Shown: positions 1-19,581 of the stretch, in pieces
Position numbering within the stretch: position 1 is the stretch's first letter
Layout of the letters: each line of letters starts with the position of its first letter
Assembly (NCBI GenBank): GCA_028820455.1
Contig: JAPPJC010000001.1
Coordinates: 1-59,347 of the forward strand
Direction of reading: 5' to 3'
Length of the DNA stretch: 59,347 nucleotides
Source of the DNA: Acidimicrobiaceae bacterium
Lineage (GTDB): Bacteria; Actinomycetota; Acidimicrobiia; Acidimicrobiales; Aldehydirespiratoraceae
Program-made: the position numbers and the translations under genes
The notes under the pieces: model-generated
Seen by the model: only the letters and a program-made list of their open reading frames with translations
Databases searched by the model: none
Told to the model about the DNA's origin: nothing

Positions 1-166
1 GATCAACACTAGGCATTACTATTGGATGTACTTGGCCGACAATTTATAGCCAAAATATCTATATCTACTTATAGTCCTATAACCGAGATCTAGAAATCTA
101 TAACAGAAATACCTTGACAAACAAGTGGCTGCCACGACAGAACATAAGCAAACCCCGAATAACAGA

Positions 167-235
167 AGGAGCTTCACTGAGTTATTCACAGCATCAGGCA
201 GGAGCTTCACTGAGTTATTCACAGCATCAGGCAGG
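167..235. repeat. 33-bp perfect tandem duplication
   Basis: aggagcttcactgagttattcacagcatcaggc at 167-199 and 200-232. Confidence 0.9.
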
Positions 236-346
236 CCGGGTGTAACTCTAACCACCTCCTCTTCTTATACCGTTCACCCACCATACTGAAGGCAGAAATT
301 AGAGGGCAGCCTATTCTGCACAGACCACGCCACCGCAATAGTTGCA

Positions 347-455
347 CTATAAACTAATGACTGAAGAAACAAACCATTCTGCACATCGTTCTGTGTGGGC
401 TTAAGCCACTTGTTGACCACCTATAAACTAATGACTGAAGAAACAAACCATTCTG
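347..455. repeat. 35-bp direct repeat pair, 74-nt period, unique insert
   Basis: ctataaactaatgactgaagaaacaaaccattctg at 347-381 and 421-455. Confidence 0.9.
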
Positions 456-526
456 TGGCTGTCCACTGACGACTGCTGACCTGCAACTACCCAACCGAGA
501 GTTGATTTTATGCTGGGCTCTGCAAG

Positions 527-2128
527 TTACACAAGGTCCTTTGAACAAGGCTCTACAAGTCTATAGGGTTTAGCCCCTGTTGGTTCTCTGATTATCTGCC
601 AGTTGTTCTCATGAATCTTATGATGACACTGATAACACACAAGAACAAGACTCTCAATATCCGTCTTACCTCCTTGCGCCCAAGGCACAATGTGATGAGC
701 CTGACACATAGACGGATCAGCACCACAACCAACACACTCCCTGTCACGCAACCTAAGAGCCTTAAGCTGAGCAGCATTAACAGTACGCTTCGACCTTCCG
801 CACCACAAAGGCCTGCCTGGGCCATCAAACAACAACCCCGTCACACGCGCATCACACATAAGCCGATCAAACACTGACGGCGGAATAGGCCCAGCACCCA
901 TAACCTCAATAAGCCCACCCGGGCTACCACCCCCACCACTGCTTTCACCAGCATTGCTACTGGTACCACTACCTAAGGTGCCGCTACCGGCTTTATCTCT
1001 CTTGAAAGTGGAAATATCAGCAAAAACCAGAACCTCAGCAGTCGGACGTGACCCAATACCACTGCTAATCCCACAATTACAACCACCCCCACTAGAAGCA
1101 ACACTCCCATTAAAACCGGTACCCCCACCACCTATCCCATTACCCTCACCTGCAACGACCTCAGTGTCACTGCTATCACGCATGATTCTCTTACTTTTAT
1201 GAGGTTTGCTAGAAAGAGGGCCAAAGGTTGTGATAAGTTGCTCTAAAGCATCCGCGCTGCACTGCTCAAAACTACGCTGACTCCCACCTAATCCAGCAAC
1301 ATTAATACCACCACCCCCACCAGCGGCACCATTTACAGAACCACTATCACCCACTACGCCCACACCACTATCACCACTCACATCTCCACCTACACCCAAG
1401 CCATCACCCCACACAACACTATTACCAACACTCCGCCTATTAGTAGTGTTGACTGCCTGTTTTTTGTCGCCACGGTAAAACAACAGAGCAACCTCATTAA
1501 GACGACTACGAATCCTAGCACCAGTTACAGGATCGAATTCCCCTTTAAGATGAGTCATACCATCATCACCATCCCAAACACGCACTGAACGCCTAGCACG
1601 TTTGCGGGCAAAATCAGCTTCACCGCGATCCCGCTGACGCTGTGCAGCCCAACGCCGCACCCGCCTAGCAAACCGATCTTCAGGCATCACCTCAGCCTCT
1701 GCAAGCAGCACAGAGTCTTCCTGCACTGCTTCAGGGTTAACATCTCGGCTAGCCTTAGCTAGAGCATCAGCATTACCAAAAGAAATCTTCCCCTCATCCA
1801 CAGCATCACTAACCTTAGGCAGCTTACGTAGCTCACCTGCTGTTTGGACCTTCCTGCTAGCCTCACGCTTAGAAACACCAATACTATTACGCAACACCCC
1901 AACCCCATCATCTCCATGGCCCTCTACCCTAGAAACAACAGCCGCAGCAGCCGTCTGAAAAGCAACAAGCCTAGAACTTACAGACTTCGACAAAGTCAGA
2001 GCATCACGCACCTCCCCAATAGAAACCCGCCCAGACCTAACACAAATCAACATCTCCGCCAGGCTCTTATCCACTTGCTCGGTGATACTTATTAGCATAA
2101 TATTAACTATGCCTGCAGGGTGTGACAT
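527..2128 (-). CDS. DUF222 domain / HNH endonuclease protein (13E12-repeat-like)
   Basis: C-terminal RDRECVGC..CQAHHIVPWAQGGKTDIESLVLVCYQCHHKIH HNH motif; DUF222-like helical N-terminal region; Gly-rich insertions. Confidence 0.85.
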   Translation of the reverse strand: MSHPAGIVNIMLISITEQVDKSLAEMLICVRSGRVSIGEVRDALTLSKSVSSRLVAFQTAAAAVVSRVEGHGDDGVGVLRNSIGVSKREASRKVQTAGELRKLPKVSDAVDEGKISFGNADALAKASRDVNPEAVQEDSVLLAEAEVMPEDRFARRVRRWAAQRQRDRGEADFARKRARRSVRVWDGDDGMTHLKGEFDPVTGARIRSRLNEVALLFYRGDKKQAVNTTNRRSVGNSVVWGDGLGVGGDVSGDSGVGVVGDSGSVNGAAGGGGGINVAGLGGSQRSFEQCSADALEQLITTFGPLSSKPHKSKRIMRDSSDTEVVAGEGNGIGGGGTGFNGSVASSGGGCNCGISSGIGSRPTAEVLVFADISTFKRDKAGSGTLGSGTSSNAGESSGGGGSPGGLIEVMGAGPIPPSVFDRLMCDARVTGLLFDGPGRPLWCGRSKRTVNAAQLKALRLRDRECVGCGADPSMCQAHHIVPWAQGGKTDIESLVLVCYQCHHKIHENNWQIIREPTGAKPYRLVEPCSKDLV

Positions 2129-2309
2129 AAAACCTACGCAAATATGTTCAAAACATAATAATTTCCAGAAATAGAGTAAAAACTCAAACCTTTGAATATG
2201 ACAATGCCGCTGCGACGAGGATAAACCACGGGGAAGTGTATAAGCATATTTGCCATTGTCGAGCGTTTATATTCCAACATCGACACCGTGGCTGCTATAA
2301 GAGCACTGC

Positions 2310-2419
2310 CCTCATCATCTCCATCGTCCTGCGTCTTTTCGGCTATGCGCAGTTCTTAGAGACGACACTCAGCCGACCTAGACCTCATCATCTCCGTCGT
2401 CCTGCGTCTTTTCGGCTAT
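2310..2419. repeat. 37-bp direct repeat pair, 73-nt period, duplicating the 3' end of the small ORF
   Basis: cctcatcatctcc(a/g)tcgtcctgcgtcttttcggctat at 2310-2346 and 2383-2419. Confidence 0.9.
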
Positions 2420-2536
2420 AGTTCGAGCAGCACTGTGTACGGCTTTTTCAACAGCGGGATATACTGTCTGAACCGCTTTGCGGCCTGCCTCAAGTCCTGC
2501 TCCTATTGCAGCTCCTACCATAAATATGCCTAGCAT
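2378..2536 (-). CDS. small hypothetical protein
   Basis: ORF MLGIFMVGAAIGAGLEAGRK..., hydrophobic N-terminus; start uncertain (ORF is open to 2590). Confidence 0.45.
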   Translation of the reverse strand: MLGIFMVGAAIGAGLEAGRKAVQTVYPAVEKAVHSAARTIAEKTQDDGDDEV

Positions 2537-2653
2537 TATTATTTTTCCTCCTTGTCTTTGTTGATGATGTAAGCAGTTTCGCATAGCCATTCGACTAAGA
2601 TGCCGTAGACGAATTCTGCTTCTTCCGTTTCACAGCAAAGTGACCAGTACTTT

Positions 2654-3108
2654 AGCAATAAGCACTAATAAATGACAATAGCAAACACGATAACACGTTC
2701 AACAACCGTTGTACAGCACCACCCTAAGCAGTAACACTAAACAAATGCGCACTCAGATTCGAGTAGCTCGAATAGCACAGACATACAGCATTATCCTAAG
2801 CAGTAACACTAAACAAATGCGCACGCTCAACACACGGACGCGGTAAGCCCGAGAGGTAATTGGAGACCTCGGAGTAGTAACACTGAAGACACGACAGCCA
2901 GCTAAAACAATACTCCAAACAACAACTCAAACAGCAACATCTTACTGGCGACAATAACGTGCAGGCCGCCCGCTGCTGAACGGCAGCTCAGAGGCCTCGT
3001 CCAAACAGCAACATCTTACTGGCGACAATAACGTGCAGGCCGCCCGCTGCTGAACGGCAGCTCAGAGGCCTCGTCCAAATAGTAACACCTTACTGGCAAC
3101 AATAACGT
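2654..3108. repeat. degenerate repeat-spacer array, ~73-nt period
   Basis: 30-bp perfect pair at 2723/2795; degenerate cores at 2654 and 2873; 74-bp tandem units at 2928 and 3002, partial unit at 3076. Confidence 0.75.
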
Positions 3109-3128
3109 CAGACTGCTAGCATGAAATT

Positions 3129-5186
3129 ATGAGACAAAACCATAACACCGAAACATCTAAACTAAACACCGAACCACTCGAACCAACTACGGAGACTCTT
3201 CCCAATCCGTCTCCTGAAGTATTCGATGCGCTCACTTTACGCAGCGTACGCAACATCCTTTGCAGCTTTCTCAATGCTCTGAAGGCTCATAGTGCCAGGA
3301 TCAACAACCTGAATGTCTACCCTGTGCCTGACGGTGACACCGGTACCAATATGACTTTAACCTTGCAGTCGGTAGTAGACGAATTAGCAGACAGCAAGGA
3401 AACCAGCAAAGATACCAGCACGGGATCAGCGAACCAGAAGCATTTCGGGACAGGATCATACAAGGAAAACGATATCAGCGAAGACGATATCAATAAGGAA
3501 GACTTCGCAGAGTTGACCAAAGCTGTTTCTTACGCTGCTTTGATGGGTGCTCGTGGTAATTCTGGGGTAATAATGGCTCAAGTTTTACGTGGTATCATCA
3601 AAGAACTACAAGAAGCCAACTCGGCTGATAAGCCACTCAACTCAAGAGTGCTGGCAGGAGCTTTTTCTACAGCTACGAAACAAGCATATGGTGCCGTTGG
3701 CAATCCAGTGGAGGGTACAATCTTGACTGTGCTGCGTGAAGCTTCCGAAGCCGCTCAAGCCGCAGCTGACAACAACTCTAACCTGCTAAAAATGTTTCAA
3801 GCAGCCCACACCCGTGGCTACAAAACATTAGCTCGCACCCCGGAAATGCTGCAGGTATTAGCCGACGCAGGGGTCATCGATGCTGGTGGAGCTGGACTAA
3901 TGCTACTCTTTGATGCTGTCTTGGCCGAGTTGGGAAGCCATAAAATACCTACCCCCGATACCATGCCAGGCTCTATGTCAGGTACTACCACTACACCAGG
4001 CTCTATGTCAGACACTGCATCAGACATGAACACCGACGCCGCACACCCGCAAACCACCCAAGCACAAACAACCCCATCCCGCGCACAACAAACATCAGGC
4101 CACCACCACGACCATGAGTCCTCCACGCAAGAGTCTTCTATAGCTGACTTGCGCTATGAAGTTATGTTCCTACTCGACGCTGATGATTCTGCCATTGAAG
4201 GCTTCAAAAACGAATGGTCGACAATCGGGGATTCCATAGCGATAATCGGCGGAGACGGAATATGGAACTGTCACATCCACACTGACGCAATTGGAGCTTC
4301 TATCGAAGCCGCTATAGCGGTGGGACGTCCACATAGAATACAAGTTACCGATCTGCTGGAACAGGTAGCTGAACAACACGATGAGCACACACATCAGGAA
4401 CCGGCTACACCTAAACCCATAAAGCAGAAGTCAGGCCAAACTGAGCAACAAAAGACACAAGCCAACGAACAATCAAAAGAGCATAGCAGCAGCACACCAC
4501 TCATACCTATGGGCATTACCGAGCCTCATAAATGCTCGGTTGTGGCTGTAGGTGTCGGCAAGGGTATTGAGGCAATGCTTATGTCAATGGGTGTTAGCCG
4601 TGTGGTGTCTGGGGGAGCGTCTATGAATCCTTCAACAGCTGAGCTACTCGCCGCCGTAGATTCCTTATCTACGGGTGAAGTGGTGATCCTCCCCAACAAT
4701 TCCAACATAATCGCAGTAGCCGAACAGCTTGATGCTGTTACTGAACGAAATGTGAGTGTCGTGCCTACCACTAACGTCTTGGAAGGGATCGCCTCACTGA
4801 TGGCTTTCAGCTCAGACAACACAAGCAGTGTCAACAGTCATTCCATGAGCTCAACCTCTGCTGATACTACAACCGGCGAGGTCACCCGAGCCGTGCGGGA
4901 TTCTGTTAGCACGATTGGCGCAATCAAGACAGGTGATTGGATCGGTGTTGGCCCTAACGGCGTTGTGGTGATCACTCAAGACGAAACTCAAGCCGTAATT
5001 GAACTTTTTTCCGCTTTACTCAATGAACAACAGCATGAACTACTGACAATCCTTACCGGAACCGATGCAAACGAAGCCTCCATAGCCGCCGTGGAAGCTC
5101 ATATAGCCAATCAACATCCCGACCTAGAAGTTGAAATCCACGATGGTGGACAACCCCTGTATCCCTACTACATCGGCTTAGTATGA
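3129..5186 (+). CDS. DAK2 domain protein (fatty acid kinase FakA/YloV-like)
   Basis: INNLNVYPVPDGDTGTNM, GARGNSGVI, C-terminal GGQPLYPY; upstream of recG. Confidence 0.92.
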   Translation: MRQNHNTETSKLNTEPLEPTTETLPNPSPEVFDALTLRSVRNILCSFLNALKAHSARINNLNVYPVPDGDTGTNMTLTLQSVVDELADSKETSKDTSTGSANQKHFGTGSYKENDISEDDINKEDFAELTKAVSYAALMGARGNSGVIMAQVLRGIIKELQEANSADKPLNSRVLAGAFSTATKQAYGAVGNPVEGTILTVLREASEAAQAAADNNSNLLKMFQAAHTRGYKTLARTPEMLQVLADAGVIDAGGAGLMLLFDAVLAELGSHKIPTPDTMPGSMSGTTTTPGSMSDTASDMNTDAAHPQTTQAQTTPSRAQQTSGHHHDHESSTQESSIADLRYEVMFLLDADDSAIEGFKNEWSTIGDSIAIIGGDGIWNCHIHTDAIGASIEAAIAVGRPHRIQVTDLLEQVAEQHDEHTHQEPATPKPIKQKSGQTEQQKTQANEQSKEHSSSTPLIPMGITEPHKCSVVAVGVGKGIEAMLMSMGVSRVVSGGASMNPSTAELLAAVDSLSTGEVVILPNNSNIIAVAEQLDAVTERNVSVVPTTNVLEGIASLMAFSSDNTSSVNSHSMSSTSADTTTGEVTRAVRDSVSTIGAIKTGDWIGVGPNGVVVITQDETQAVIELFSALLNEQQHELLTILTGTDANEASIAAVEAHIANQHPDLEVEIHDGGQPLYPYYIGLV

Positions 5187-5419
5187 GCCCCCTTTTGTCT
5201 AGTCTGGTATGTAACCCACTGTCTAGTCTTGTCTAGTCGGCTGAGTATATTCCCTCTCCCAATCGGCTCTAATTGCAAGCCCCCTGAATCGGCCTAATAT
5301 AATCTCCCTACTAACCTCCTCTTCTGCATCAGCCCAATATCAGGTTGAACATCTGCGTCGTCCACCGTCCACAACACCCCACACCAGCTCACAACACACC
5401 AGCTTCCTTTCAAACAACT

Positions 5420-7765
5420 ATGCCAGCAGGCGATCCTCCTTTAACGCTTCAAGACCTCCATAATCTGAGTGCTGGGCGTTTGCGCAATTCTGCTCCCAGC
5501 GCATTTCCCGGTCTTGCCAAGGCAGGAATACACACTGTGCTTGACCTGCTACAGCATTATCCACGCCGTTACCTCGACCGCACTCAACGCCTTGATATAG
5601 ACCAATTATCGATGGGCCAACTATCGCTTGACACCAGCACCAGCCCCACCAACACCAACAGGAACAAAAACACCAGTAATAGGACATCTGAACACAAACA
5701 AGAAACTGTCAAAGAGGTCTACGTTGTCGGCGAAGTGGTTAATTTGCAACGAAGACGAACCCGCCGTAAGCGATTTTCAGTGGTCAGTATGTGGCTGCGT
5801 GAAACCATCGGCATTATCGAACTTGTTTTTTTCAATCAAAGCTGGATAGCCAAGCAGTACAAAACCGGTGATACGGTTGTGGCTTTCGGCAAGATAAGTC
5901 GCTTCCGCGACAGATATCAGATGAAAAGCCCCACCATCGACAGGTGGGGTGACATGGCCGGACGAATAATGCCCGTGTACCCTGGGTTAACCAACACAGG
6001 TCTTCGCTCTTTCGAGTTTGCGCGGTTCGTAGATAACGCGCTTAACCGTTGTACAGCCCGAGGAATTGCAGATCCAGTGCCGACTAAGGTTTTGAAGAGA
6101 CTGGGACTGCTCAGCCGTCAACGGGCGTTAAACGGCATCCACAGACCAGAAACTCACAAGGACTACAGACAAGCTCGCCGCCGCCTCGTATTCGATGAAC
6201 TTTTGAGAATGCAAGTTGAGCTGGTACGTCGGCAGCGACGTTTGCGTGCCACCACTAGCGGAGTTTCCCATGTTATAAACGGAGAACTCACCAGAGGTTT
6301 CTACAGCAACCTACCATTCGAACTCACAGATACCCAGAAGCAAGTCATAGAAGAGATTTCCGACGATCTAGCCCAGCCGTGGCCTATGCACCGCCTATTG
6401 CAAGGCGATGTTGGTTCGGGTAAAACGGTAGTAGCCCTTCATGCTTTGCTCACCGCAGTTCAGGGTGGCTTTCAAGGCGTTCTAATGGCCCCCACTGAAA
6501 TTTTAGCCGAACAGCATATGGCGACTATACGAAGCCTAGTAGACGGACTTGAAATACCAGATCAGACGAGACTCAGCGGTAAAAGACCTTTGCGGGTTGA
6601 CCTGCTGACCAGTCAAACGTCTAAAACTTTGCGGCGTGATATTATAGCCAGTCTGACCACTGGTGCTGTCGATATTGTTGTGGGAACACATGCCCTCATC
6701 TCTGAAAATGTTGAATACAAAGCTTTGGCAGTAGCTGTTGTGGACGAGCAGCATCGATTCGGTGTGGAGCAACGCTCACAGCTACGCGACAAAAGTTCAA
6801 ACTCAGCGATTGTCAAAACAGTCGCAGCAACATCCGAAACAAAAACAGCACCCCCCGGAACGATCCCAGCAGCAACCACCGCAACAGCATCTACGTTGGC
6901 TTTTGGAACAATTCCCGACATGCTTGTGATGACTGCAACACCAATACCACGCACAGCTGCCATGACCGTCTACGGAGACCTGGAAGTGTCTATTTTGGAT
7001 GAGCTGCCTGCAGGTCGTCAGGCCATCACCACACTTCGGGCACCGACGCCTGAACACGAAAATCAAGTGTGGCAAGAAGTGCGCAGAGCAGTGGCAAAGG
7101 GACGCCAAGCGTACGTGGTTTGCCCACTCATTGAAGATTCTACCGCTTTAGCAGTACGCTCAGCCACCGAACTTTACGATTACCTCACCGAACCTGACAG
7201 CCCGTTGCACGATCTGAGGATAGGACTTCTTCACGGTCGTGTAGCACCAGCTGAAAAGCAACAGACGATGGAATTGTTTTATTGCGGCCAGTTTGACTTG
7301 CTTGTAACTACCACTGTTATTGAAGTGGGGGTAGACGTACCCAACGCCACGGTTATGGTAGTGGTAGACGCCCATCGTTTTGGCATCGCCCAGCTTCATC
7401 AACTACGAGGCCGGGTCGGACGGGGAAGCCACGCTTCTGTTTGTTATCTACTGGGTTCCTCAACAAGTGAAGAGGGGGAAGCCCGGCTTAATGCGGTAGC
7501 AGAAACCACCGACGGTTTCAAACTTGCTGAGGTAGACCTGGACCTACGTGGTGAGGGTACGATCATGGGTGCCCAACAGAAAGGTCGCAGCGACTTGCGT
7601 TTAGCTTCGTTGAGACATCACAAGCACTGGATAAAAAAAGCCCGTGAGATTGCGACTGACCTTGTCAGCCCGAATGGAACACTCGAAAAATATCAGATGA
7701 TCGCCGATGAGGTTGAATTCATATTTGAAAACAATCCTGCAGCAGATTTCCTGTTAAAAAGCTGA
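5420..7765 (+). CDS. recG: ATP-dependent DNA helicase RecG
   Basis: LLQGDVGSGKT, VVDEQHRFG, MTATPIPRT, QLHQLRGRVGRG; start taken at ATG 5420 (ORF open from 5345). Confidence 0.96.
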   Translation: MPAGDPPLTLQDLHNLSAGRLRNSAPSAFPGLAKAGIHTVLDLLQHYPRRYLDRTQRLDIDQLSMGQLSLDTSTSPTNTNRNKNTSNRTSEHKQETVKEVYVVGEVVNLQRRRTRRKRFSVVSMWLRETIGIIELVFFNQSWIAKQYKTGDTVVAFGKISRFRDRYQMKSPTIDRWGDMAGRIMPVYPGLTNTGLRSFEFARFVDNALNRCTARGIADPVPTKVLKRLGLLSRQRALNGIHRPETHKDYRQARRRLVFDELLRMQVELVRRQRRLRATTSGVSHVINGELTRGFYSNLPFELTDTQKQVIEEISDDLAQPWPMHRLLQGDVGSGKTVVALHALLTAVQGGFQGVLMAPTEILAEQHMATIRSLVDGLEIPDQTRLSGKRPLRVDLLTSQTSKTLRRDIIASLTTGAVDIVVGTHALISENVEYKALAVAVVDEQHRFGVEQRSQLRDKSSNSAIVKTVAATSETKTAPPGTIPAATTATASTLAFGTIPDMLVMTATPIPRTAAMTVYGDLEVSILDELPAGRQAITTLRAPTPEHENQVWQEVRRAVAKGRQAYVVCPLIEDSTALAVRSATELYDYLTEPDSPLHDLRIGLLHGRVAPAEKQQTMELFYCGQFDLLVTTTVIEVGVDVPNATVMVVVDAHRFGIAQLHQLRGRVGRGSHASVCYLLGSSTSEEGEARLNAVAETTDGFKLAEVDLDLRGEGTIMGAQQKGRSDLRLASLRHHKHWIKKAREIATDLVSPNGTLEKYQMIADEVEFIFENNPAADFLLKS

Positions 7766-7800
7766 CCAACAAATCAACAACAAAAAACTAAGAAGTAGCG

Positions 7801-7906
7801 GCTGACATGATAATGCGAGTAGTTGCCGGCACACACCGAGGTGGCATTCGACTTGCCTTCACCCGACTTGGTAGCTGACATGATAATGCGAGTAGTTGCC
7901 GGCACA
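7801..7906. repeat. 33-bp direct repeat pair, 73-nt period, covering the rsmD start
   Basis: gctgacatgataatgcgagtagttgccggcaca at 7801-7833 and 7874-7906. Confidence 0.92.
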
Positions 7907-8599
7907 GCAAAAGGACGAAGACTTGCAGTCCCAACAGGCAACGTTACCCGTCCTACTCCTGGTAGAGTGCGTGAAGCAATATTCAACTCTTTATATTCAC
8001 AGGGGTTGATAGAAAATTCTCGTGTACTTGATCTATACGCTGGTACTGGCGCATTAGGTATTGAAGCTTTAAGCCGTGGAGCAGCTGAGGCAGTCTTCCT
8101 AGAACAAGACGCACGTGCAGTGACTTCCCTGAGAAAAAACTTGACTTCTACAGGTCTGGCTGAGCGAGCGACTATCATAGTTGCTGATGTTGAAAAAAAC
8201 CTCACCAGACTTCACACTGAACAAGCAGCGTCTTCAGGTTCTGGAAAAACTCATCAGAACTGCCAAACCCACGAAGATTCTCATGTCAATGTTGACACAA
8301 CCCTTACCAGACTTGACATATCCGACTTTTGCAAGCGTCACGTATCGGAACGTTTTTTTGAGCGTTCTTTTGATCTTGCTGTGGTTGACCCGCCTTATTC
8401 ATTCGAACGCTGGGAGTGGCTGTTGAAACGGATACCCGCCAAACTAGTGGTTGCTCAATCAAATCGTCGAATTGATATAGGACAAGAGTGGGAGATCAGA
8501 GGATGTAGAAGCTATGGGCGCACCGTGGTAACATTTGGTTTTTGGGCAGGAGCTTTGATAGAAAAGGACACTTTGGAAGTGAATGGATTAAGGCAGTGA
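7880..8599 (+). CDS. rsmD: 16S rRNA m2G966 methyltransferase RsmD
   Basis: MRVVAGTAKGRRL, TRPT..RVREAIF, LDLYAGTGALGIEALSRGA, DPPY; between recG and coaD. Confidence 0.92.
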   Translation: MIMRVVAGTAKGRRLAVPTGNVTRPTPGRVREAIFNSLYSQGLIENSRVLDLYAGTGALGIEALSRGAAEAVFLEQDARAVTSLRKNLTSTGLAERATIIVADVEKNLTRLHTEQAASSGSGKTHQNCQTHEDSHVNVDTTLTRLDISDFCKRHVSERFFERSFDLAVVDPPYSFERWEWLLKRIPAKLVVAQSNRRIDIGQEWEIRGCRSYGRTVVTFGFWAGALIEKDTLEVNGLRQ

Positions 8600-8687
8600 C
8601 CCGTGTTTTGTATCCTACGTCTAGGATTAGCAGCGTGGCTTTTAGCACGAGGAATGGATTAGCGCAGTGACCCGTGTTTTGTATCCT
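8581..8687. repeat. 36-bp direct repeat pair, 71-nt period, at the rsmD stop / coaD start
   Basis: gaatggatta(ag/gc)gcagtgacccgtgttttgtatcct at 8581-8616 and 8652-8687. Confidence 0.9.
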
Positions 8688-9140
8688 GGTTCGTTCGATC
8701 CTATCCACTATGGACATTTGGAAATTATTGAAACGGTGTCACAAATATTCGGGCAGGTTGTTGTAGCTGCTATGTTTAACCCACAAAAGAATGAAGTCTT
8801 ATTCAGTCTTGATGAACGTAAACGAATAATAGTCGAAGCCTGTGCTCATATCCCGAATGTTTCTGTAGCGGTTTCTGAGGGCCTAGTAGTTGATTTGGCT
8901 AAAAAACTCGAGGCGGACTTTATCGTGAAAGGCTTGCGAGCCGTTTCGGATTTTGAGAGAGAACTGCAGATGGCACAAATGAATTTTGCTCTCTCAGGAA
9001 TCCATACAACTTTCATTCCCTCTGCTAGTCGACATTCGTTTTTAGCTTCAAAGCTAATACGTGAAGTAACTCGATTAGGAGGAGACGTATCACCAATGGT
9101 ACCCGAAGCTGTTATGCGACATTTGCCCAAAACCTCTTGA
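8667..9140 (+). CDS. coaD: pantetheine-phosphate adenylyltransferase
   Basis: YPGSFDPIHYGH, KGLRAVSDFERELQMA. Confidence 0.96.
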   Translation: MTRVLYPGSFDPIHYGHLEIIETVSQIFGQVVVAAMFNPQKNEVLFSLDERKRIIVEACAHIPNVSVAVSEGLVVDLAKKLEADFIVKGLRAVSDFERELQMAQMNFALSGIHTTFIPSASRHSFLASKLIREVTRLGGDVSPMVPEAVMRHLPKTS

Positions 9141-9202
9141 TTCAACTCAAATACCCAGACGCAACCACAACAACCAATGCTCTTCAACCAATACCCTCTA
9201 TA

Positions 9203-9305
9203 CCTAATAGCCTGAATAGCGATCATCTACTGAGTGAGAGACTGGAGTGGAAGCATACAGGACTGCCATTGAACCCTAATAGCCTGAATAGCGATCATCT
9301 ACTGA
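9203..9305. repeat. 31-bp direct repeat pair, 72-nt period
   Basis: cctaatagcctgaatagcgatcatctactga at 9203-9233 and 9275-9305. Confidence 0.9.
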
Positions 9306-9336
9306 ACGAAACATCGAATGAGCGAAACATCCGACA

Positions 9337-10029
9337 ATGCAGAACGAAGACACGGAAACCAGCAGCACCACAACTAACCACCAACGAGAGCCGTTACCTC
9401 CATCTGCTGTCGATGCTCTAGACGAACCGACCCCTCCTTTGCTTCCTACTCCATCTACACCTCATGGTCAGGTACCTTCAACCCCAACCGCTGCACGTGC
9501 ACGTAGTGGTGCTGTTGAGGCACTACTTCGTCAGGCCATGAGCATACTGGAACAAGCACGGCCTATGCCGCTTTCCACGTCTGTGATCATTAATCGTGAT
9601 GAACTGAATAGCGTGTTGACTCAAGCGTTTGAACTGCTGCCTGAGGAACTACAAGCTGCCAGATGGCTACTCAAAGAGCGCGATGACATGCGGGCAAGAA
9701 TGCGGCGTGAAGGTGAAGACATTATAGCCGCTGCACGGGCTCGTGCTGAACAGATGGTGCAGCGTAGCGAAGTAAAAAAGGAAGCCGATCGTCAAGCACG
9801 ACGCGCTATTGACACAGCCGAGGGTCAAGCACTGCGCATGAAGCTTGAAACAGAGGACTGGTGCGATCAACGTCTAGCAGGACTTGAGTCGCTGCTGCAG
9901 AAGTCGCTCAACGCCGTGCTAGCAGGACGTCAGCGACTTCAAGATACAAGACTACCCAACCCTGAAAACGAGACATCCGAAGATAAACCTGAAAAAAAGA
10001 TATACGACTACGATCATGACGCTGATTAA
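9337..10029 (+). CDS. coiled-coil DivIVA/SepIVA-like protein
   Basis: ARPMPLSTSVIINRDEL...LPEELQAARWLLKER; conserved coaD-X-yceD-rpmF position. Confidence 0.75.
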   Translation: MQNEDTETSSTTTNHQREPLPPSAVDALDEPTPPLLPTPSTPHGQVPSTPTAARARSGAVEALLRQAMSILEQARPMPLSTSVIINRDELNSVLTQAFELLPEELQAARWLLKERDDMRARMRREGEDIIAAARARAEQMVQRSEVKKEADRQARRAIDTAEGQALRMKLETEDWCDQRLAGLESLLQKSLNAVLAGRQRLQDTRLPNPENETSEDKPEKKIYDYDHDAD

Positions 10030-10314
10030 TCATGTTGAAGTCGGTTATTGACACGAACAACATAACCGAACACTGACAAACATAGCCAAACAACGCAACC
10101 AAGTTAAAACAGTGTTATTTGAGTTTTGGTTGGATCTAGCTCAATGCAAGTCGACTGCAGGAGTTGGCTCAACAAATATCGGCTAAAGGCAAATGGCAAC
10201 TATAAGGTTGGCTGAACACATAGTTTGGCTGAATGAACGGTGAACAAATAGCTGAAACCATCGCTGTCAAACAGGCTTAAATCAGCGAGCTCGCTAAACG
10301 AGCTTAAACAACAA

Positions 10315-10872
10315 ATGGATAATAGCTCTGAATCTGCTCAACTAATTTTGGACTGTGCCCAGCTAGATGCTGGTTCAACCGACACGATTGTCGTGTGCCA
10401 ACAGTTGGTGTTGGACAACGCGACTGTTGCTACAACCCACATACTGAACGGCTTGGTGACAGTAGACCTCACAGTAAATGCCACCACGGCTAAAAAACTC
10501 GTGGCCATAGGCAACGTGCACGGTACTTGGATAGCTGAATGTCGTCGCTGTCTTGACAAAATGGAAGGTCAACTTGAAGTACCAATAAGGGAAGTGTTTG
10601 AAGACACTCCCATTGAAGGTGAAACATGGCCTATTTCAATGTCACGGATCAATTTGGGGCCACCTGTACGTGAAGCTGTACTCTTGTCACTTCCTCTAAC
10701 ACCTCTATGCTCAACAACCTGCGCTGGCCCTGTACCCAACCGTTTCCCAACCGGCCCTGCGACATCCAATGAACCCGCGTCCAATAAACACGACTTAAAA
10801 GCTGTTCAATCTACCGACAAACAACCCAAAAACCCTACATGGGATGCTCTAAACCAGATACGCTTTGAATGA
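10315..10872 (+). CDS. YceD/DUF177 metal-binding protein
   Basis: ECRRCL and PLCSTTCAG motifs; upstream of rpmF. Confidence 0.85.
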   Translation: MDNSSESAQLILDCAQLDAGSTDTIVVCQQLVLDNATVATTHILNGLVTVDLTVNATTAKKLVAIGNVHGTWIAECRRCLDKMEGQLEVPIREVFEDTPIEGETWPISMSRINLGPPVREAVLLSLPLTPLCSTTCAGPVPNRFPTGPATSNEPASNKHDLKAVQSTDKQPKNPTWDALNQIRFE

Positions 10873-10955
10873 ACACAGCAGCCCTGAGAGCTCATATGCT
10901 TTTATAGTCGACTCGCCTTCAAACCAGATACGCTTTGAATGAACACAGCAGCCCT
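10851..10955. repeat. 35-bp direct repeat pair, 70-nt period, covering the yceD stop
   Basis: aaaccagatacgctttgaatgaacacagcagccct at 10851-10885 and 10921-10955. Confidence 0.92.
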
Positions 10956-11249
10956 ATTGTGGCATTCGCAATATGTATCAACTAATTTTTGTGACAGTAC
11001 CAACGTAAGCTAAGCAAATAATACAAGACAAGTAGCAAAATAGGGCTAGATCAGCAATACAGAGAGATTCGACAAGAGATCAGCAACAGCAGTACAGAGT
11101 TAATTCAGTAGCATGGTGATAGTGCTAGGTAGTAATGCTGGTAGTGCCAGTCCAGGTAGATGCTTAAGCAGCAGATAGCCTTGGGTACACTTACAAGTTC
11201 GACTTATTCGTTTGATTTTGGTTTGTTCATTTAATGGTGAGTAACAGTT

Positions 11250-11432
11250 ATGCCAGTTCCTAAGAAAAAAACATCTAAAGCTCGTACTCGCAGCAGGCGG
11301 TCAGCTTCGTGGTACATCAAACAAAGCGGGCGCAGTATTTGCAGCCAATGCGGGGTTGTCAAAAGGCCTCATCATGCGTGCAAAGAGTGTGGTTGGTACC
11401 ATAGTCGGCAAGCTATAGAGGTTGCAGAGTAG
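11250..11432 (+). CDS. rpmF: 50S ribosomal protein L32
   Basis: MPVPKKKTSKARTRSRR, CxxC...HHACKECG. Confidence 0.96.
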   Translation: MPVPKKKTSKARTRSRRSASWYIKQSGRSICSQCGVVKRPHHACKECGWYHSRQAIEVAE

Positions 11433-11485
11433 AACTCCCAGCAAAAGATTTTAGACGTAAACAGCAAACGCTAGAAGATGAAGAC

Positions 11486-12487
11486 ATGAAGCCAGTGGCG
11501 GTTGACGCTATGGGGGGCGATTACGGCCCTGAACAGGTCGTGGCAGGTGGCTTGAAAGCTGTAAGAGAATTCGGTATTCCTGTAATGGTTGCAGGCCCTC
11601 CTGATGAATTGCAGAAAATTGAAGGAATACACGACGTAGAGATTATCGAGGCGCATCAGGTTATCCCTATGGACGCGGAACCCGGTATCAGCGTACGCAG
11701 AATGCGAGACTCTTCTATCTCCAGAGCTGCTGAAGCTGTGCGTAACGGCCGAGCTTCAGCCATGGTCTCCCCAGGAAATACAGGTGCTGTGATGGGTACT
11801 GCGATACTTCGGCTAGGCCGCATTCCTGGTATCCCTCGTCCAGCTGTCGCCACACGCGTACCCACCTACGGTGGCCTTCCCACCACCATGTTGGACTGCG
11901 GAGCCAATGCGGAGTGCAAGCCTGAATGGTTAGTGCATTTTGCCCGTATGGGCGTAATTTATGCACGAGATCGTTTTAACATCGAATGCCCTCGGGTGGG
12001 TTTATTGTCAATAGGCGAAGAAGAAGGCAAAGGCAATCCTTTTGTAAAAGAGGCCTACGAACTGTTGAACGATCAAAGATGGACCCATGATGTACATGCT
12101 GAATGGGTAGGCAACGTTGAAGGCAACAATATAATGTCAACAGACGTGGATGTAGTTGTCACCGACGGCTTCACGGGAAATATTACGCTTAAAGTACTTG
12201 AAGGTACCTTTCGAGAACTGATTCGTCGCTTCGCAAAAGCTATCGATGACGCAAAAACCGGCAAAGCTACGGACAGCGCGGTTGACGGTGTTGTCGATGG
12301 CTTAACGCAAGAATTGCATCCCGATAATGTAGGTGGAGCACTTTTACTCGGTGTCAAAGGAGTGTGCGTGATTTCGCATGGTTCTAGCAGTTCAGAAGCC
12401 ATTATGAATGCAATAGTCTTCGCACATGAGATGGCTACTGCTGGAATGATAGGACACCTTTCTGGTATTGGCCGCACCTCAAAGTGA
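11486..12487 (+). CDS. plsX: phosphate acyltransferase PlsX
   Basis: VAVDAMGGDYGP, GNTGA, LDCGAN, VVVTDGFTGN. Confidence 0.96.
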   Translation: MKPVAVDAMGGDYGPEQVVAGGLKAVREFGIPVMVAGPPDELQKIEGIHDVEIIEAHQVIPMDAEPGISVRRMRDSSISRAAEAVRNGRASAMVSPGNTGAVMGTAILRLGRIPGIPRPAVATRVPTYGGLPTTMLDCGANAECKPEWLVHFARMGVIYARDRFNIECPRVGLLSIGEEEGKGNPFVKEAYELLNDQRWTHDVHAEWVGNVEGNNIMSTDVDVVVTDGFTGNITLKVLEGTFRELIRRFAKAIDDAKTGKATDSAVDGVVDGLTQELHPDNVGGALLLGVKGVCVISHGSSSSEAIMNAIVFAHEMATAGMIGHLSGIGRTSK

Positions 12488-12580
12488 GATCACCACACCT
12501 AAACACGCAAATCCCCGTCTAGTACTGCTAGATTTAAGGGTTTACATTAACATCCAATATTTATGCCCGGAGGTTTGCCT

Positions 12581-12871
12581 ATGACAGCAGAGACCCATGC
12601 AAAACAGGGCCCGGTCGAGCGCGATGAGGTGCGAACGTTGGTTTGTGATCATCTTGCCGACATTCTTGAAATCGAGCCCTCCGACATCAGTGAAGGTGAC
12701 TCCTTTGCTGATGATTTAGATGCCGATTCTCTTGCTCTGATCGAACTTGTTGAAATAATTGAAGAAGAAATGAGAGAACGTTTCGACGATTTCCGTATAG
12801 AAGACGAAGCTCTTCAAGATTTGCGAACTGTGCGCGACGCGATTGACTATGTTATGTCACAATTGAATTGA
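12581..12871 (+). CDS. acpP: acyl carrier protein
   Basis: DLDADSLALIE phosphopantetheine site; GGAGG upstream of ATG 12581. Confidence 0.92.
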   Translation: MTAETHAKQGPVERDEVRTLVCDHLADILEIEPSDISEGDSFADDLDADSLALIELVEIIEEEMRERFDDFRIEDEALQDLRTVRDAIDYVMSQLN

Positions 12872-12946
12872 AACATGGTATCAAATTCAGTTCAAGTATG
12901 CTATCGACAAGCGCGGCGACAAACACAGACATTGCTGCATTGAAAC

Positions 12947-13756
12947 ATGATACCCCCACCCGCAAACACTGCTGAGTTAGAACAGCAGATCGGCTACAAC
13001 AATAAAGCAAAAAACGTTCACACACCCCCACCTGCAAACACTGCTGAGTTAGAACAGCAGATCGGCTACCAGTTCACCGATCGATCTTTATGCGACACAG
13101 CACTCACCCATACTTCTTGGTGTGCTGAGAACGACATGGGGCCTTCTAATCAACGTCTTGAATTTTTAGGTGATGCTGTTTTAGGGCTGGTAGCAGCTCA
13201 TTGGTTATACAGCGAGTACAGTGACCTATCCGAAGGCCAGATGTCTAAAGCTCGCGCTGAGATGGTAAGCAAAAACTCGTTAGCCGCAGCTGCACGGACA
13301 TGTGACTTGGGTCTATATTTGCTACTCGGTCAAGGTGAGGACAATTCTGGGGGCCGTCATAACCCGTCGCTGTTAGCTGATGGCTTAGAATCGGTTATAG
13401 GCGCAATATACCTTGACGGAGGATTAACCGCAGCTGAAACCACAATACGTAAAATACTCGGGAAATCGTTCAATAATATCGCTCAAGCCCCAGGTTTAAC
13501 CGATTTCAAAAGTCGACTCCAAGAAATAGCCGCTCATGCTGGAATCGCTCCACCTCACTACGACATAGCCAACAGTGGCCCCGAACACGACAAACGTTTT
13601 TATGCGTTGGTAACAGTTGGCGAAACGTTTGGGAAAGGAGAAGGAAGCACCAAAAAAAGTGCGTCGCAACGCGCTGCCGAACAAGCATGCGCAATACTTG
13701 CCAGCCAACTTACACAAGAAAAGAAACAAGAAAGAAATAGGCAGGAAAAGAAATAG
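12947..13756 (+). CDS. rnc: ribonuclease III
   Basis: NQRLEFLGDAVLG signature, dsRBD (DFKSRLQE...GPEHDKRF); duplicated N-terminal segment. Confidence 0.96.
   Translation: MIPPPANTAELEQQIGYNNKAKNVHTPPPANTAELEQQIGYQFTDRSLCDTALTHTSWCAENDMGPSNQRLEFLGDAVLGLVAAHWLYSEYSDLSEGQMSKARAEMVSKNSLAAAARTCDLGLYLLLGQGEDNSGGRHNPSLLADGLESVIGAIYLDGGLTAAETTIRKILGKSFNNIAQAPGLTDFKSRLQEIAAHAGIAPPHYDIANSGPEHDKRFYALVTVGETFGKGEGSTKKSASQRAAEQACAILASQLTQEKKQERNRQEKK
12952..13069. repeat. 46-bp in-frame direct repeat pair, 72-nt period, in the rnc 5' end
   Basis: 12952-12997 and 13024-13069, 1 mismatch; PPPANTAELEQQIGY occurs twice. Confidence 0.92.
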
Positions 13757-14080
13757 ATACAACTAGCGAAAAAATAATCGCAGTCAACAAACAAGCAGTG
13801 CTGACTGTATGAGTATCACAAACAAAAACGTGAGTACAATCGCCAAGCCGACAATCAGATATGGCCAATATAGCCGAAGTTTGATTTGCCTTGATTATGC
13901 TACGTTTGCCTTGATTAGGTTGAGGTAGACTTTGCTAAGATATATCAAGGAGAAACATACCAATTCGTTAGTGTCTTTCTAGCATCTTTACCACCTGGTT
14001 TTTTGTATTCTGCTTTTATTTCTAACACCACATTCACATTTCAAAAAACATGGCCACCACAGCGTGAAGGTTGAAACGGC

Positions 14081-15091
14081 TTGCTCACAACTAAGACATC
14101 CCTGAAAACTGATGCAGCTGGTCCTGCTGAATCCGATTCCACAGAGCAGATGACAGCCAAACAGAGGAAGTTGCTCGCAAGGATTGAACGCGCGCGTTCA
14201 GATCGTAACACCGCGAGTGCTGACAGGCCGGATGAAATGTTTGATTACGAACTGCCTGAAGTGGAACTTGTGCGCAAAAGCTTGGAAAGGGAGATCACGG
14301 GTCTAACTATTGAAAACTGTGAAGCAGCAAGTCTGAAATGCTTAAGAAGCTATTTCTTCCGTAAATACTTCACCAACCGTCTAGCAGGGGCAAAGATCAA
14401 CAAAGTGGAACGCATCGGCCTTTACATAGCTATCAAGCTTGAATCCGAGCAGTTTGATACCAGCCATGTGTTGATCCTGTCACTCGGTGCTTCAGGCTCA
14501 CCCAGATGGATGCCAGCAGACAGCAAAGAAAAACTGAAAAATACTGAAGTGGTGATAAAATTCTCCAACGGTAACAAGCTTCTGTTTGTCGACCCGGTCG
14601 GCACCGGTCAGCTATTTCTTGTGCCAGAAGATGATATCGCCACACACATACCTGAAGTTGCCAACTATGGCAGCGACCCCCTTAGCCCAGTAGCGTGGAC
14701 AGAGATCGGGCAACGACTACTACAACAAGAGCGTGAACTCAAAACCCTGCTCAAAGATGACACTTTCATGGTGGGGATAGACACTATCTACGTTGATGAA
14801 ATTCTTTTTGAAGCCGGTTTACGCTATGACCGAGTTGCCAACACCTTAAGCAGTCAAGAAATACGACGATTGCACCGGTCTCTAGGAAGTACTTTACACA
14901 ACGCCATGAAATACGGGGGAACATCATTGCCTGAGCGGCCTTTCACAAATCCTCTCGGAAATACCGGGGGATATTCAAACCACATCCAAGTGTGGGGACG
15001 ACACGATCAACTAAGCGTTCGATCGCGTGATCCGATAAAAAGAGTGCAATATCAAGGTTCCTGGACCTACTATTGCGATACCCAGATTTGA
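14081..15091 (+). CDS. Fpg/Nei-family DNA glycosylase-like protein (divergent)
   Basis: ELPEVE, H2TH-like GIDTIYVDEILFEAG; follows rnc like mutM; start uncertain (ATG 14237 possible). Confidence 0.8.
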   Translation: MLTTKTSLKTDAAGPAESDSTEQMTAKQRKLLARIERARSDRNTASADRPDEMFDYELPEVELVRKSLEREITGLTIENCEAASLKCLRSYFFRKYFTNRLAGAKINKVERIGLYIAIKLESEQFDTSHVLILSLGASGSPRWMPADSKEKLKNTEVVIKFSNGNKLLFVDPVGTGQLFLVPEDDIATHIPEVANYGSDPLSPVAWTEIGQRLLQQERELKTLLKDDTFMVGIDTIYVDEILFEAGLRYDRVANTLSSQEIRRLHRSLGSTLHNAMKYGGTSLPERPFTNPLGNTGGYSNHIQVWGRHDQLSVRSRDPIKRVQYQGSWTYYCDTQI

Positions 15092-15130
15092 CCTATCGAC
15101 TGGGAGAATCAACAAAACGAGCATAAGGAC

Positions 15131-16453
15131 ATGGACAAAGATATAGACGGCTCTGATGCTTACGACTGGCAGCCAGATATGCAAGACGAGCCTACGGAAG
15201 AAAGCGAATCAGCGGATGAGAACACCGCTTCAGCTTCAGCACCGCCACCGGTGTTGCGTCCAAACACACACTCAGATCCCGCAGATAAAAAGACCAGTCA
15301 ATCACGTTTACTTGCTACAATACTACTTGCTCTGGTAACCGCGGTTTTCATAAACCTGGGCGTCAGAAAGTTAACCTCTGACAACCTGAACTCTAAAGGT
15401 GGTGGCTCTGAAGAAGCAGCTGAAGAGTCGTGGGTGAAAATAGGTGAGATTGATGACGAAGATGATGCCGACATTGAAGGCAACACGCCGTCTACAAGTA
15501 ATTCTGCAGAAGAATATGTACCCGGCTTACCATCCACAAATGACAATTCACAAGAACCCGCAGTTTATGTAGCTGAGTTTGTTGCTCCTTCAGTCGTGCG
15601 GGTCAGTACTGCCACTGGTCAAGGATCAGGAATAGTATGGGACGCTTCTGAGGGTTACATAATCACCAACCACCATGTGGTCAGAGACCCCATAATAGGA
15701 GATGTCGATACGGTGACTGTAACTTTCTCCAACGGCACCAGACTAGAAGGAGAAGTTGTTGGGGTCTCCCCCAACCAAGATGTAGCTGTCATACTCGTGG
15801 ACCCAGAAGAGGTTCAATTGAAGCCTGCTGTATTTGCGCCCATGCAATCAATCAAAATCGGACAACTGGCAGTGGCTATTGGGAGCCCATTCGGCCTCAC
15901 AGGTACAGTAACCTCTGGCATTGTCAGTGGTATTCGAATAAACCTTTACGGCGGCTCAGACCCTGAAGCACCCGTTCCAGTAGAGATGATACAAACTGAC
16001 GCTCCCATAAATCCGGGCAACTCGGGAGGAGCTTTAGCCGACCGCCAAGGCCGAGTGATCGGCATGAACACAAGCATTCAGACAGCAGGAGAAATGGGCA
16101 ACGTAGGAGTTGGTTTCGCGGTGCCCAGTGACACTATTGAGTTAATTGCAAATCGCATAGTCAAAGGAGAGTCACTTGATATAGGTTTCCTGGGGATTTC
16201 CAGCGAAACCAACGTATCGACCGAGGATGGGGTGCTCATCACAAGCGTAGTTGAAGACTCACCAGCGGATCAAGCTGGTATCCAAGTAGGCGACGTGATT
16301 ATTGGCCTTGAAGGTGAAACAGTGGAAACCATAGCCGAACTCTCCGCAGATATAAAGCTGCATCCACCGGGAGATGTGGTAGAACTAGAAATCCGACGCG
16401 ACAAAACTGTCTTCAGAACTAGTGTAGTGCTCAGCTCTTACACATCATCTTAA
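15131..16453 (+). CDS. HtrA/S1C serine protease with PDZ domain, membrane anchored
   Basis: ITNHHVV, IQTDAPINPGNSGGAL, C-terminal PDZ, one TM helix. Confidence 0.93.
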   Translation: MDKDIDGSDAYDWQPDMQDEPTEESESADENTASASAPPPVLRPNTHSDPADKKTSQSRLLATILLALVTAVFINLGVRKLTSDNLNSKGGGSEEAAEESWVKIGEIDDEDDADIEGNTPSTSNSAEEYVPGLPSTNDNSQEPAVYVAEFVAPSVVRVSTATGQGSGIVWDASEGYIITNHHVVRDPIIGDVDTVTVTFSNGTRLEGEVVGVSPNQDVAVILVDPEEVQLKPAVFAPMQSIKIGQLAVAIGSPFGLTGTVTSGIVSGIRINLYGGSDPEAPVPVEMIQTDAPINPGNSGGALADRQGRVIGMNTSIQTAGEMGNVGVGFAVPSDTIELIANRIVKGESLDIGFLGISSETNVSTEDGVLITSVVEDSPADQAGIQVGDVIIGLEGETVETIAELSADIKLHPPGDVVELEIRRDKTVFRTSVVLSSYTSS

Positions 16454-16456
16454 CTG

Positions 16457-16561
16457 CAATAAGCTTCAGACAAGCATTGCAACTCCAATACCGTGGATTC
16501 TAAAAGTCTGGTGGGACCAGCATATGTGACAATAAGCTTCAGACAAGCATTGCAACTCCAA
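16457..16561. repeat. 32-bp direct repeat pair, 73-nt period
   Basis: caataagcttcagacaagcattgcaactccaa at 16457-16488 and 16530-16561. Confidence 0.92.
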
Positions 16562-16628
16562 CGCCCGCGTAATTTCATCCGTATAATTTTTTAGGTATGA
16601 GCACAAATAGCAAACACAAGTAGAACCT

Positions 16629-17939: not shown

Positions 17940-18024
17940 ACAATCTGCTGCTAATCGCTGAAATGCTGCTAATTGGTTACTGATGTACTGCTAATCGCTG
18001 AAGTGCTGCTAATATTGTCAAATC

Positions 18025-19518: not shown

Positions 19519-19581
19519 CAATCCGGGTGGAAACACCAACCCAAGTGAGAACAATTAACGCAATGTGTGAAAGGAACTAAA

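Follow-up and report, generated by a model that had tools for sequence, protein, structure and literature searches.

Introduction

Off-target integration of spacers by Cas1-Cas2, the integrase of CRISPR systems, was reportedly described by Nivala, Shipman and Church in 2018 (Nat Microbiol 3:310) as giving rise to “neo-CRISPR” loci. Here we describe a 59,347-nt stretch of an Acidimicrobiaceae genome (contig JAPPJC010000001.1 of assembly GCA_028820455.1, positions 1 to 59,347; hereafter the window) in which a set of short direct repeats, at positions 2310–3108, lies just upstream of a gene for a DAK2/FakA-like protein. Our reading is that these repeats arose by off-target spacer integration, followed by unequal recombination, and we put its probability at about 0.78.

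The experimental work on neo-CRISPR loci is reported to concern the type I-E system of Escherichia coli with over-produced Cas1-Cas2 (PMC7054753, bioRxiv 10.1101/148544, PMC6698737), and the evidence for natural neo-CRISPR loci was circumstantial and came from two other species (bioRxiv 10.1101/148544). The repeats that we describe resemble the E. coli loci in that an insert of spacer size is flanked by a duplication of a non-CRISPR target whose length equals that of the resident repeat, integrase genes are present, and a site can be targeted anew and in this way begin an array. They differ in being natural, in numbering about 160 events in one genome, and in matching three systems (I-G, II, and I-E-like). 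Furthermore, many of them are apparently common to several strains, some lie in genes, and the length of the duplication is looser (about 31–41 nt).

Streptococcus thermophilus and S. mutans have also been described as acquiring spacers ectopically within their arrays (PMC7999890, PMC5338259, PMC8265633). There, integration likewise occurs away from the leader-proximal repeat, but the streptococcal events use a true repeat inside a true array, whereas here the target is unrelated DNA. The closest comparison within this genome is with its own canonical arrays (I-G, I-E-like, and type II), which have the same period and the same proportions of repeat to spacer; unlike these arrays, the loci in question have repeats that are unique genomic sequences without a palindrome or a 3′ handle, and they lack both a leader and neighboring cas genes. 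Full-text literature searches turned up no description of off-target spacer integrations in large numbers in a natural genome. Off-target integration is known from the laboratory; the interest of these loci lies in their natural scale, in the three systems, and in growth to several units, and they bear on the natural origin of arrays and on the cost of adaptation to the host.

Three loci of the same build upstream of a FakA-like gene

Positions 2310–3108 hold three separate loci (A, B, and C), each of the form X-Y-X, in which a duplicated local sequence X surrounds an unrelated insert Y (Table 1). The sizes are 37 nt (X) and 36 nt (Y) for locus A, 36–41 and 31–36 nt for locus B, and 33 and 41 nt for locus C, which has the extended form X-Y-X-Y-X′. 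Tandem Repeats Finder describes locus C as a 74-nt unit present 2.4 times with 96% matches (2928–3108), and the autocorrelation of 2600–3128 has peaks at lags of 74 and 72. In locus B, the direct-repeat search gave a 41-nt pair (2712–2752 and 2784–2824; 93% identical, spacing 72), and the boundaries between X and Y are sharp: the X copies match at 33 of 36 positions, as compared to 11 of 36 for the stretches between copies. The inserts are also compositional islands, with a G content of 0.31 versus 0.14 in the rest of 2644–3108.

Table 1. Coordinates of the three loci and of the genes around them (positions in the window; X_B2 is the second X copy of locus B).
Feature	Position	Strand	Size	Remarks
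Locus A, X copy 1	2310..2346		37 nt	97% identical to 2383–2419, spacing 73 (direct-repeat search)
Locus A, insert Y_A	2347..2382		36 nt	Between the X_A copies; holds the stop codon that now ends the small open reading frame on the minus strand
Locus A, X copy 2	2383..2419		37 nt	Pair with 2310–2346
Possible old degenerate X_B copy (doubtful)	2644..2679			18/36 to X_B2; in phase at 2717 − 73; z ~2.9
Locus B, X copy 1	2717..2752		36 nt	Similarity extends back to 2712; 33/36 to 2789–2824
Locus B, insert Y_B1	2753..2788		36 nt	Matches the following stretch between copies at 11 of 36 positions
Locus B, X copy 2	2789..2824			33/36 to X copy 1
Right flank of locus B or second insert Y_B2	2825..2862		38 nt	58% G+C; an insert if the third copy at 2863–2898 is genuine
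Possible third degenerate X_B copy	2863..2898			19/36 to X_B2; tied best non-self match; exactly +74 from 2789
Locus C, X copy 1	2928..2960		33 nt	Direct-repeat search
Locus C, insert Y_C	2961..3001		41 nt	G+C-rich hairpin
Locus C, exact duplicate of X_C + Y_C unit	3002..3075		74 nt	100% identical to 2928–3001
Locus C, gene-proximal X copy	3076..3108		33 nt	29/33 (88%) to copies 1–2; all four differences are transitions
DAK2/FakA-like gene	3129..5186	+		Pfam Dak2, FakA-like_M, FakA-like_C; starts 20 nt past the last X copy
Small putative open reading frame	2378..2536	−	52 aa	From ATG at 2536; hydrophobic N-terminus; 3′ end inside locus A
recG	5345–7765			Next after the DAK2/FakA-like gene
DUF222-HNH gene	527–2128	−		Upstream of the small open reading frame

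Could these repeats have formed by replication slippage alone, as plain tandem duplications of a unit of about 73 nt that then diverged, without any foreign DNA? The two units at 2928–3075 are indeed a perfect tandem duplication, and the genome contains many perfect short tandem duplications. But slippage followed by divergence does not explain why divergence is so uneven (92% identity for X_B as compared to 31% for the inter-copy stretches) or why a whole unit is repeated only in the two perfect units of locus C, and it cannot account for the composition of Y or for inserts that copy distant genes (see below). We consider it very unlikely.

An earlier note on this DNA had described 2654–3108 as one nascent or degenerate array of about seven units, built on two related cores. 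The repeats themselves are real, and the description was borne out in part. An 11-nt core that had been listed at 2654, 2727, 2799, and 2873 is exact at 2727 and 2799 and has one mismatch at 2873, but the site at 2654 exceeds two mismatches; the same 11-mer has two mismatches at 3078. Allowing up to two mismatches, the core occurs 35 times in the window as compared to 18.2 ± 3.7 times in shuffled sequence, and none of 100 shuffles reached 35. The units that the note had placed at 2930, 3004, and 3078, with a step of 74 nt, are those of locus C, and the 41-nt stretch between them is present twice and identical, as the note had said, with a hairpin of −18.3 kcal/mol. What did not hold up was the joining of the two families. 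Local alignments of X_B and X_C score like shuffles (p = 0.27 and 0.47), which by the note's own standard refutes the link, and the families are offset by 57 nt instead of sharing a register of 72–74 nt. Because X_B and X_C are no more alike than shuffled sequences, these are separate loci and not a single seven-unit family: there were at least two seeds, or three with locus A (2310–2419), which is an extra unit of the same build that lies outside the range of the note.

Locus B may be longer than its two good copies. The best non-self 36-mer matches of X_B are at 2651 and 2863 (19/36 each), and 2644 scores 18/36, with z of about 3. The positions at 2644 and 2863 are in phase with a period of 72–74 (p of roughly 0.01–0.04), which is suggestive of degenerate X_B copies, and no more than that. 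Finally, the presence of three units within 800 bp, as compared to a mean spacing of 14.9 kb across the genome, suggests that this region is permissive or preferred.

A genome-wide class of dispersed units

To see the repeats in context, consider the whole genome (2.41 Mb in 84 contigs; 92% complete), which was scanned for exact direct repeats of at least 20 nt at offsets of 20–200. Particular offsets stand out: there were 74 cases at an offset of 72, 31 at 73, 17 at 71, 15 at 69, 13 at 74, 14 at 66, and 32 at 61, and none at 67, 77, or 80. After the arrays were removed and the borders were refined, 162 dispersed loci remained (from 163 candidates), each with its own unique X. They fall into three clusters. 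The first has X of about 31–41 nt (mode 36–37) and a period of 69–76 (mode 72), the second has X of 33–40 nt, Y of 27–32 nt, and a period of about 65–66, and the third has X of 27–30 nt (mode 28–29 at offsets of 60–62) and a period of 60–61. The window contains 18 of the direct-repeat matches.

Some of the dispersed loci are more complex than X-Y-X. At C21:17388–17537 (contig and position), outside the true arrays, three X copies of 27–28 nt surround two different inserts with a period of 61, which is I-E geometry; at C4:39392–39560, one target carries overlapping units of the 61 and 73 types. The many “perfect 2.5-copy” tandem repeats of period ~70 that Tandem Repeats Finder reports are best interpreted as cases of X-Y-X that have grown to X-Y-X-Y-X, and the copy number of such perfect repeats may be under-called by an assembly with k = 55.

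Few features are shared by the repeats or by the inserts. X begins with G at 26 of 61 loci and with T at only 5, and overall there is only a weak preference for G…C ends. Short runs of X often continue as a mismatched extension, with identity of 0.33–0.42 as compared to 0.25 over positions +2 to +8 (for example, C35:20633 and locus B of the window). Comparing Y to Y found no common inserts except for one pair of loci within a duplicated region (C21/C45). Across the class, the inserts are not enriched in hairpins (minimum free energy of −5.7 vs. −6.1; p = 0.8), so the hairpin of Y_C is incidental.

Fourteen further units of the same build, with periods of 60–75, lie elsewhere in the window, at 7801, 8593, 9203, 10851, 12962, 16457, 20959, 22364, 22843, 44322, 45119, 48103, 48240, and 57041. 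Some of these are inside reading frames, and the removal of others restores longer frames.

Sizes of the units and the resident CRISPR systems

The genome has three kinds of CRISPR array. The type I-G genes on contig C29 form a complete set and encode Cas7g/Csb1, Csb2, Cas3g, a Cas3-extension protein, a Cas4g/Cas1g fusion (615 amino acids; NF049935, 748 bits), and Cas2; the array lies after cas2 and extends into the beginning of C28, with repeats of 36 nt, spacers of 36–38 nt, and a period of 72–74. A type II system on C58 has Cas9, Cas1, and Cas2, and the array at the end of C9 has repeats of about 36 nt, spacers of 30 nt, and a period of 66. An I-E-like array (C29:26448–27917), with about 18 repeats of 28 nt, spacers of 33 nt, and a period of 61, reaches the end of its contig. 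The three size classes of dispersed loci equal the repeat and spacer sizes of these three resident arrays, and loci A, B, and C all belong to the I-G size class. The integrase genes of the matching system are encoded (an intact Cas4/Cas1-Cas2 for I-G), as are Cas1 and Cas2 of type II. It is from the geometry of the units and this gene content that we infer which integrase was probably responsible.

Some inserts are copied from the genome's own genes

Among the 162 inserts, 22 match another place in the genome (E ≤ 0.01). Thirteen of the matches are full-length (30–37 nt, 88–100% identical), and the homology stops at the borders of the insert. The other nine comprise four that arise from one duplicated region counted twice over (C21/C45) and five that are short partial matches or a coding tandem repeat. 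For example, the 34-nt insert at C32:24891 is identical to C39:21062–21095, the 37-nt insert at C47:4834 has a full-length donor, and the insert at C61:60780 is a fragment of a tRNA. Two loci of the 28 + 33 class (C30:5083 and C72:1312) have donors as well. Within the window, the unit at 347–455 (X 35 nt, Y 39 nt, period 74) has a donor: its insert matches part of a P-type ATPase gene on C25 (28 nt at 96%). Besides that ATPase, the donor genes encode a class I tRNA synthetase, RtcB, argininosuccinate synthase, PhoU, McrBC, an SbcC-like protein, a glycosyltransferase, and a tRNA. Since the donors are ordinary genes of this genome, 13 of the inserts are self-derived. In a functioning array, spacers of this kind would do harm, but at an off-target site they are presumably harmless. 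Roughly 90% of the inserts have no donor in the assembly.

Insertions and reading frames

At 84 of the 162 loci, no long reading frame spans the site. Another 49 loci lie inside open frames of at least 150 codons and keep the frame, and 29 of these add exactly 72 nt (24 codons), which is a signature of selection; at loci that appear to be intergenic, the period spreads from 69 to 76. In 26 cases, deleting Y and one X restores a frame of at least 150 codons, and in the remaining three, there is a long frame only with the insert. Locus A may have cut short a putative gene in this way: if its Y and X are deleted, the small minus-strand open reading frame grows from 52 to 109 amino acids and fuses with an open reading frame at 2134–2286 (in the region 2134–2590).

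Variation among strains and checks on the assembly

We compared four public sequencing runs to positions 1–20000 of the window. Contigs with k = 31 from the source run are identical to the window, and they break at 2957/3050, 7830/7877, 9232/9276, 10880/10926, 12991/13040, and 16486/16532, which is exactly where direct repeats of at least 31 nt predict breaks. One of these contigs covers 426–2957 with no differences, so loci A and B were reproduced by a second assembler.

Two runs from other studies hold strains that are about 92–95% identical. At 7831/7877, 10877/10922, and 12979/13037, the ends and starts of their contigs fall only a few bases from the same X copies, so the units at 7831, 10877, and 12979 are probably common to related strains and therefore old. 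The related strains also have units at places where the window has the empty site: a 36-nt duplication with 29 letters between the copies at 10046–10081, a 37-nt duplication with a 39-nt insert at 5280–5316 (in the spacer between the FakA-like gene and recG), and a 31-nt duplication with 35 letters between the copies at 16820–16850. Around the unit at 347–455, a related-strain contig connects 60 with 428 through 22 letters of other sequence.

These comparisons speak against an artefact of assembly, which we regard as scarcely credible. In its favor, ten direct repeats of exactly 55 nt with periods of 60–75 abut N gaps or the ends of contigs (for example, C16:34030, C17:21710, and C81:27854); these are loop ends of an assembler with k = 55, that is, repeats of unresolved copy number, and they were set aside. 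Similarly, k-mer contigs do not fix how many copies of the perfect 74-nt unit locus C has. On the other hand, the second assembler broke only at repeated segments of at least 31 nt, and insertions of this kind also appear in the runs from other studies. Also, X (33–37 nt) is shorter than k = 55, so the X-Y-X arrangement is unambiguous in the assembly graph.

Related genomes

We also searched 400-kb samples of five complete genomes of relatives and counted clean cases of X-Y-X after inspection; by this measure, the genome under study (G000) has about 27 per 400 kb. G002, which is in the same genus (66% G+C) and has Cas1, has six (in L043, L048, L052, L054, and L059). X is 31–38 nt in these units (35–38 nt in four of the six) and the periods are 71–75 and 79. 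G002 also has an array at L148:6198–12430 with about 85 repeats of 37 nt and periods of 72–78 (mostly 74–75), and its dispersed units are shifted in the same direction as the array. G003, of the same genus but without Cas1, has at most one clean case, and G017, also without Cas1, has none. Three period-72 matches in G017 (including L087:5632 and L090:7805) were rejected, as they are tandem copies of a repeat element that bears a hairpin. The units in G002 show that the process is not confined to G000. Because few genomes were sampled and they are related to one another, the co-variation of Cas1 with X-Y-X lends modest support to the involvement of an integrase.

Proposed series of events

Under off-target integration, Cas1-Cas2 carrying a prespacer would attack DNA that is not part of a CRISPR array; going by the geometry, this would be the type I-G Cas4/Cas1 fusion with Cas2. 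Two staggered strand transfers about 33–37 bp apart (roughly one repeat length) would insert a Y of 36–41 nt, and repair of the gaps would duplicate the target between the cuts, which would give X-Y-X. Three sites close to one another (2310 for A, 2717 for B, and 2928 for C) would have been struck independently. More than one hit is possible at site B, and such new repeats can apparently be hit again (compare C21:17388). The X copies would then permit unequal recombination, so that X-Y units could be duplicated or deleted; the 74-nt unit of locus C would have been duplicated later, by unequal recombination or by slippage between X copies. This order of events is a proposed one. Nothing indicates that the units have a function, as a CRISPR array or otherwise, and X lacks the features of true repeats.

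Much of the evidence above fits this account. The earlier note's central proposal, of insertions into non-CRISPR DNA plus one duplication of a unit, gains support from the sharp boundaries, the composition of the inserts, the size of the units, the genome-wide class, the donors, and the polymorphism among strains. The interpretation given in the note is supported in substance: the locus is probably a naturally formed group of neo-CRISPR units in the I-G size class, and one instance of a genome-wide process.

Other results weigh against it. For the inserts of loci A, B, and C, there is no donor in the genome itself or, with a search in distant mode, among the INPHARED phages (which gave only a 23-nt chance match), and the exact 41-nt Y_C has no match in viral or metagenome contigs. 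X_C (33 nt) and Y_C (41 nt) sit at the edge of the size class. No PAM (protospacer-adjacent motif) or other consistent flank was found beside the 13 donors. The Cas1, Cse1, and Cas6e of a I-E system were not found in the 92%-complete assembly, despite the dispersed 28 + 33 units (for Cse1 and Cas6e, the controls of the Pfam searches were positive only in Thermus, and these searches have limited sensitivity). Two relatives that do have Cas1, G006 and G023, have no clean X-Y-X outside of arrays in 400 kb. The one related-strain contig that spans loci A–C has 352 unalignable letters in place of 2101–3184, and a clean empty site was not seen there. X_A, X_B, and X_C show no likeness to the three true repeats (p > 0.05 in 15 of 15 comparisons). 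And the standard deviation of X is 3.1–3.9, as compared to about 1.5 for X + Y, with a correlation between X and Y of about −0.9; a fixed ruler combined with an independent spacer length would not predict that X varies more than X + Y does.

Part of this last discrepancy lies in the borders. The loci at C32:24891 and C16:32358 resolve to 36 + 36 once the donors fix the extent of the insert: the apparent border between X and Y shifts because the flank of the donor shares microhomology with the end of X. In-frame selection also sharpens the peak at 72. Ambiguous borders and mismatches in the Y-proximal part of X account for only part of the spread of X, and a residue remains.

That residue is where an undescribed, Cas-independent process would come in. 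Such a process would add a near-constant ~72 nt by pairing a copied fragment with a compensating duplication of the target, as in template switching during repair synthesis. It would fit an X + Y that is far more constant than X, and it would also fit donors that in 13 of 13 cases are the genome's own ordinary genes and lack a PAM. But it does not predict three size classes that each equal the repeat plus spacer of one resident array, or units in G002 that shift with its 37-nt repeat, or that the sampled relatives without Cas1 have at most one unit; also, the compensation is partly due to the ambiguity of the borders, and the inserts are not enriched in hairpins. We judge this process to be quite unlikely.

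The comparisons of X with the true repeats bear on another alternative, that the locus is a genuine but decayed (orphan) CRISPR array. Its period of 72–74 and its proportions of repeat to spacer are CRISPR-like. However, X_A, X_B, and X_C are unrelated to each other as well as to the three true repeats, and they resemble the surrounding A/C-rich DNA. No cas genes are nearby, and one “spacer” is present twice. Locus B has just two good copies (33/36) besides doubtful ones at ~50%, and locus C has three. A decayed array is therefore highly improbable.

If off-target integration is correct, this genome records ~160 natural events by up to three systems, and these include intergenic, in-frame, gene-disrupting, multi-unit, and strain-variable cases. 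It would then be an uncommon natural record of the way in which CRISPR-like arrays can get started. The specificity of the integrase, the sampling of self versus foreign spacers, the fate of new repeats, and the insertional load would all be measurable from sequence. A more far-reaching idea, which we think is unlikely, is that the locus shows the birth of a CRISPR array in the wild, with new repeats being re-used by the integrase (up to three inserts in locus B; C21:17388) and amplified by recombination. If this were true, and if the units were transcribed from the divergent promoter region, then some of them might yield guide-like or regulatory RNAs with a new repeat; in this sponge-associated lineage, Cas1-Cas2 would also act as a natural mutagen of major importance, and one that adds 24-residue modules to proteins.

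The intergenic region and its neighbors

Loci B and C lie in an intergenic spacer of 538 nt (2591–3128) that is A/C-rich on the plus strand. The repeats are flanked by the DUF222-HNH, FakA-like, and RecG genes, with no cas genes nearby, and the small minus-strand open reading frame (2378..2536) does not match any Pfam family.

This position, between divergent genes, raises the question of whether the repeats are functional: they might be tandem genes for small RNAs, or protein-binding sites that control the small open reading frame on one side and the fakA-like and recG genes on the other. The strong hairpin in Y_C and the A/C-rich plus strand would be compatible with this. An Rfam scan of 1–8000 at E ≤ 1 gave just two hits, which were at chance level and outside the repeat region; ARAGORN identified no tRNA-like units; and a scan for promoters and terminators gave counts close to the expectation from shuffling. 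(A candidate promoter in X_C3 that had been picked out by eye fell below the criteria of the scan and was dropped.) Neither 40 relatives nor the 3 other genus members conserve the spacer, their matches being confined to coding DNA, and in a strain about 93% identical it is replaced. A search of metagenome contigs for related loci with a FakA-like protein found nothing. Moreover, the 529-nt spacer is single-copy in its own genome, and this build recurs within genes and at 162 unrelated loci. Functional repeats are thus a very improbable explanation.

The FakA-like proteins of the relatives are ~38–46% identical, and the coding matches have ~45% amino-acid identity. Apart from the units described here, coding tandem repeats with a unit of 111 nt (37 codons) are also numerous in the genome, on contigs C12, C28, C30, C35, C37, C39, C46, C53, C69, and C73.

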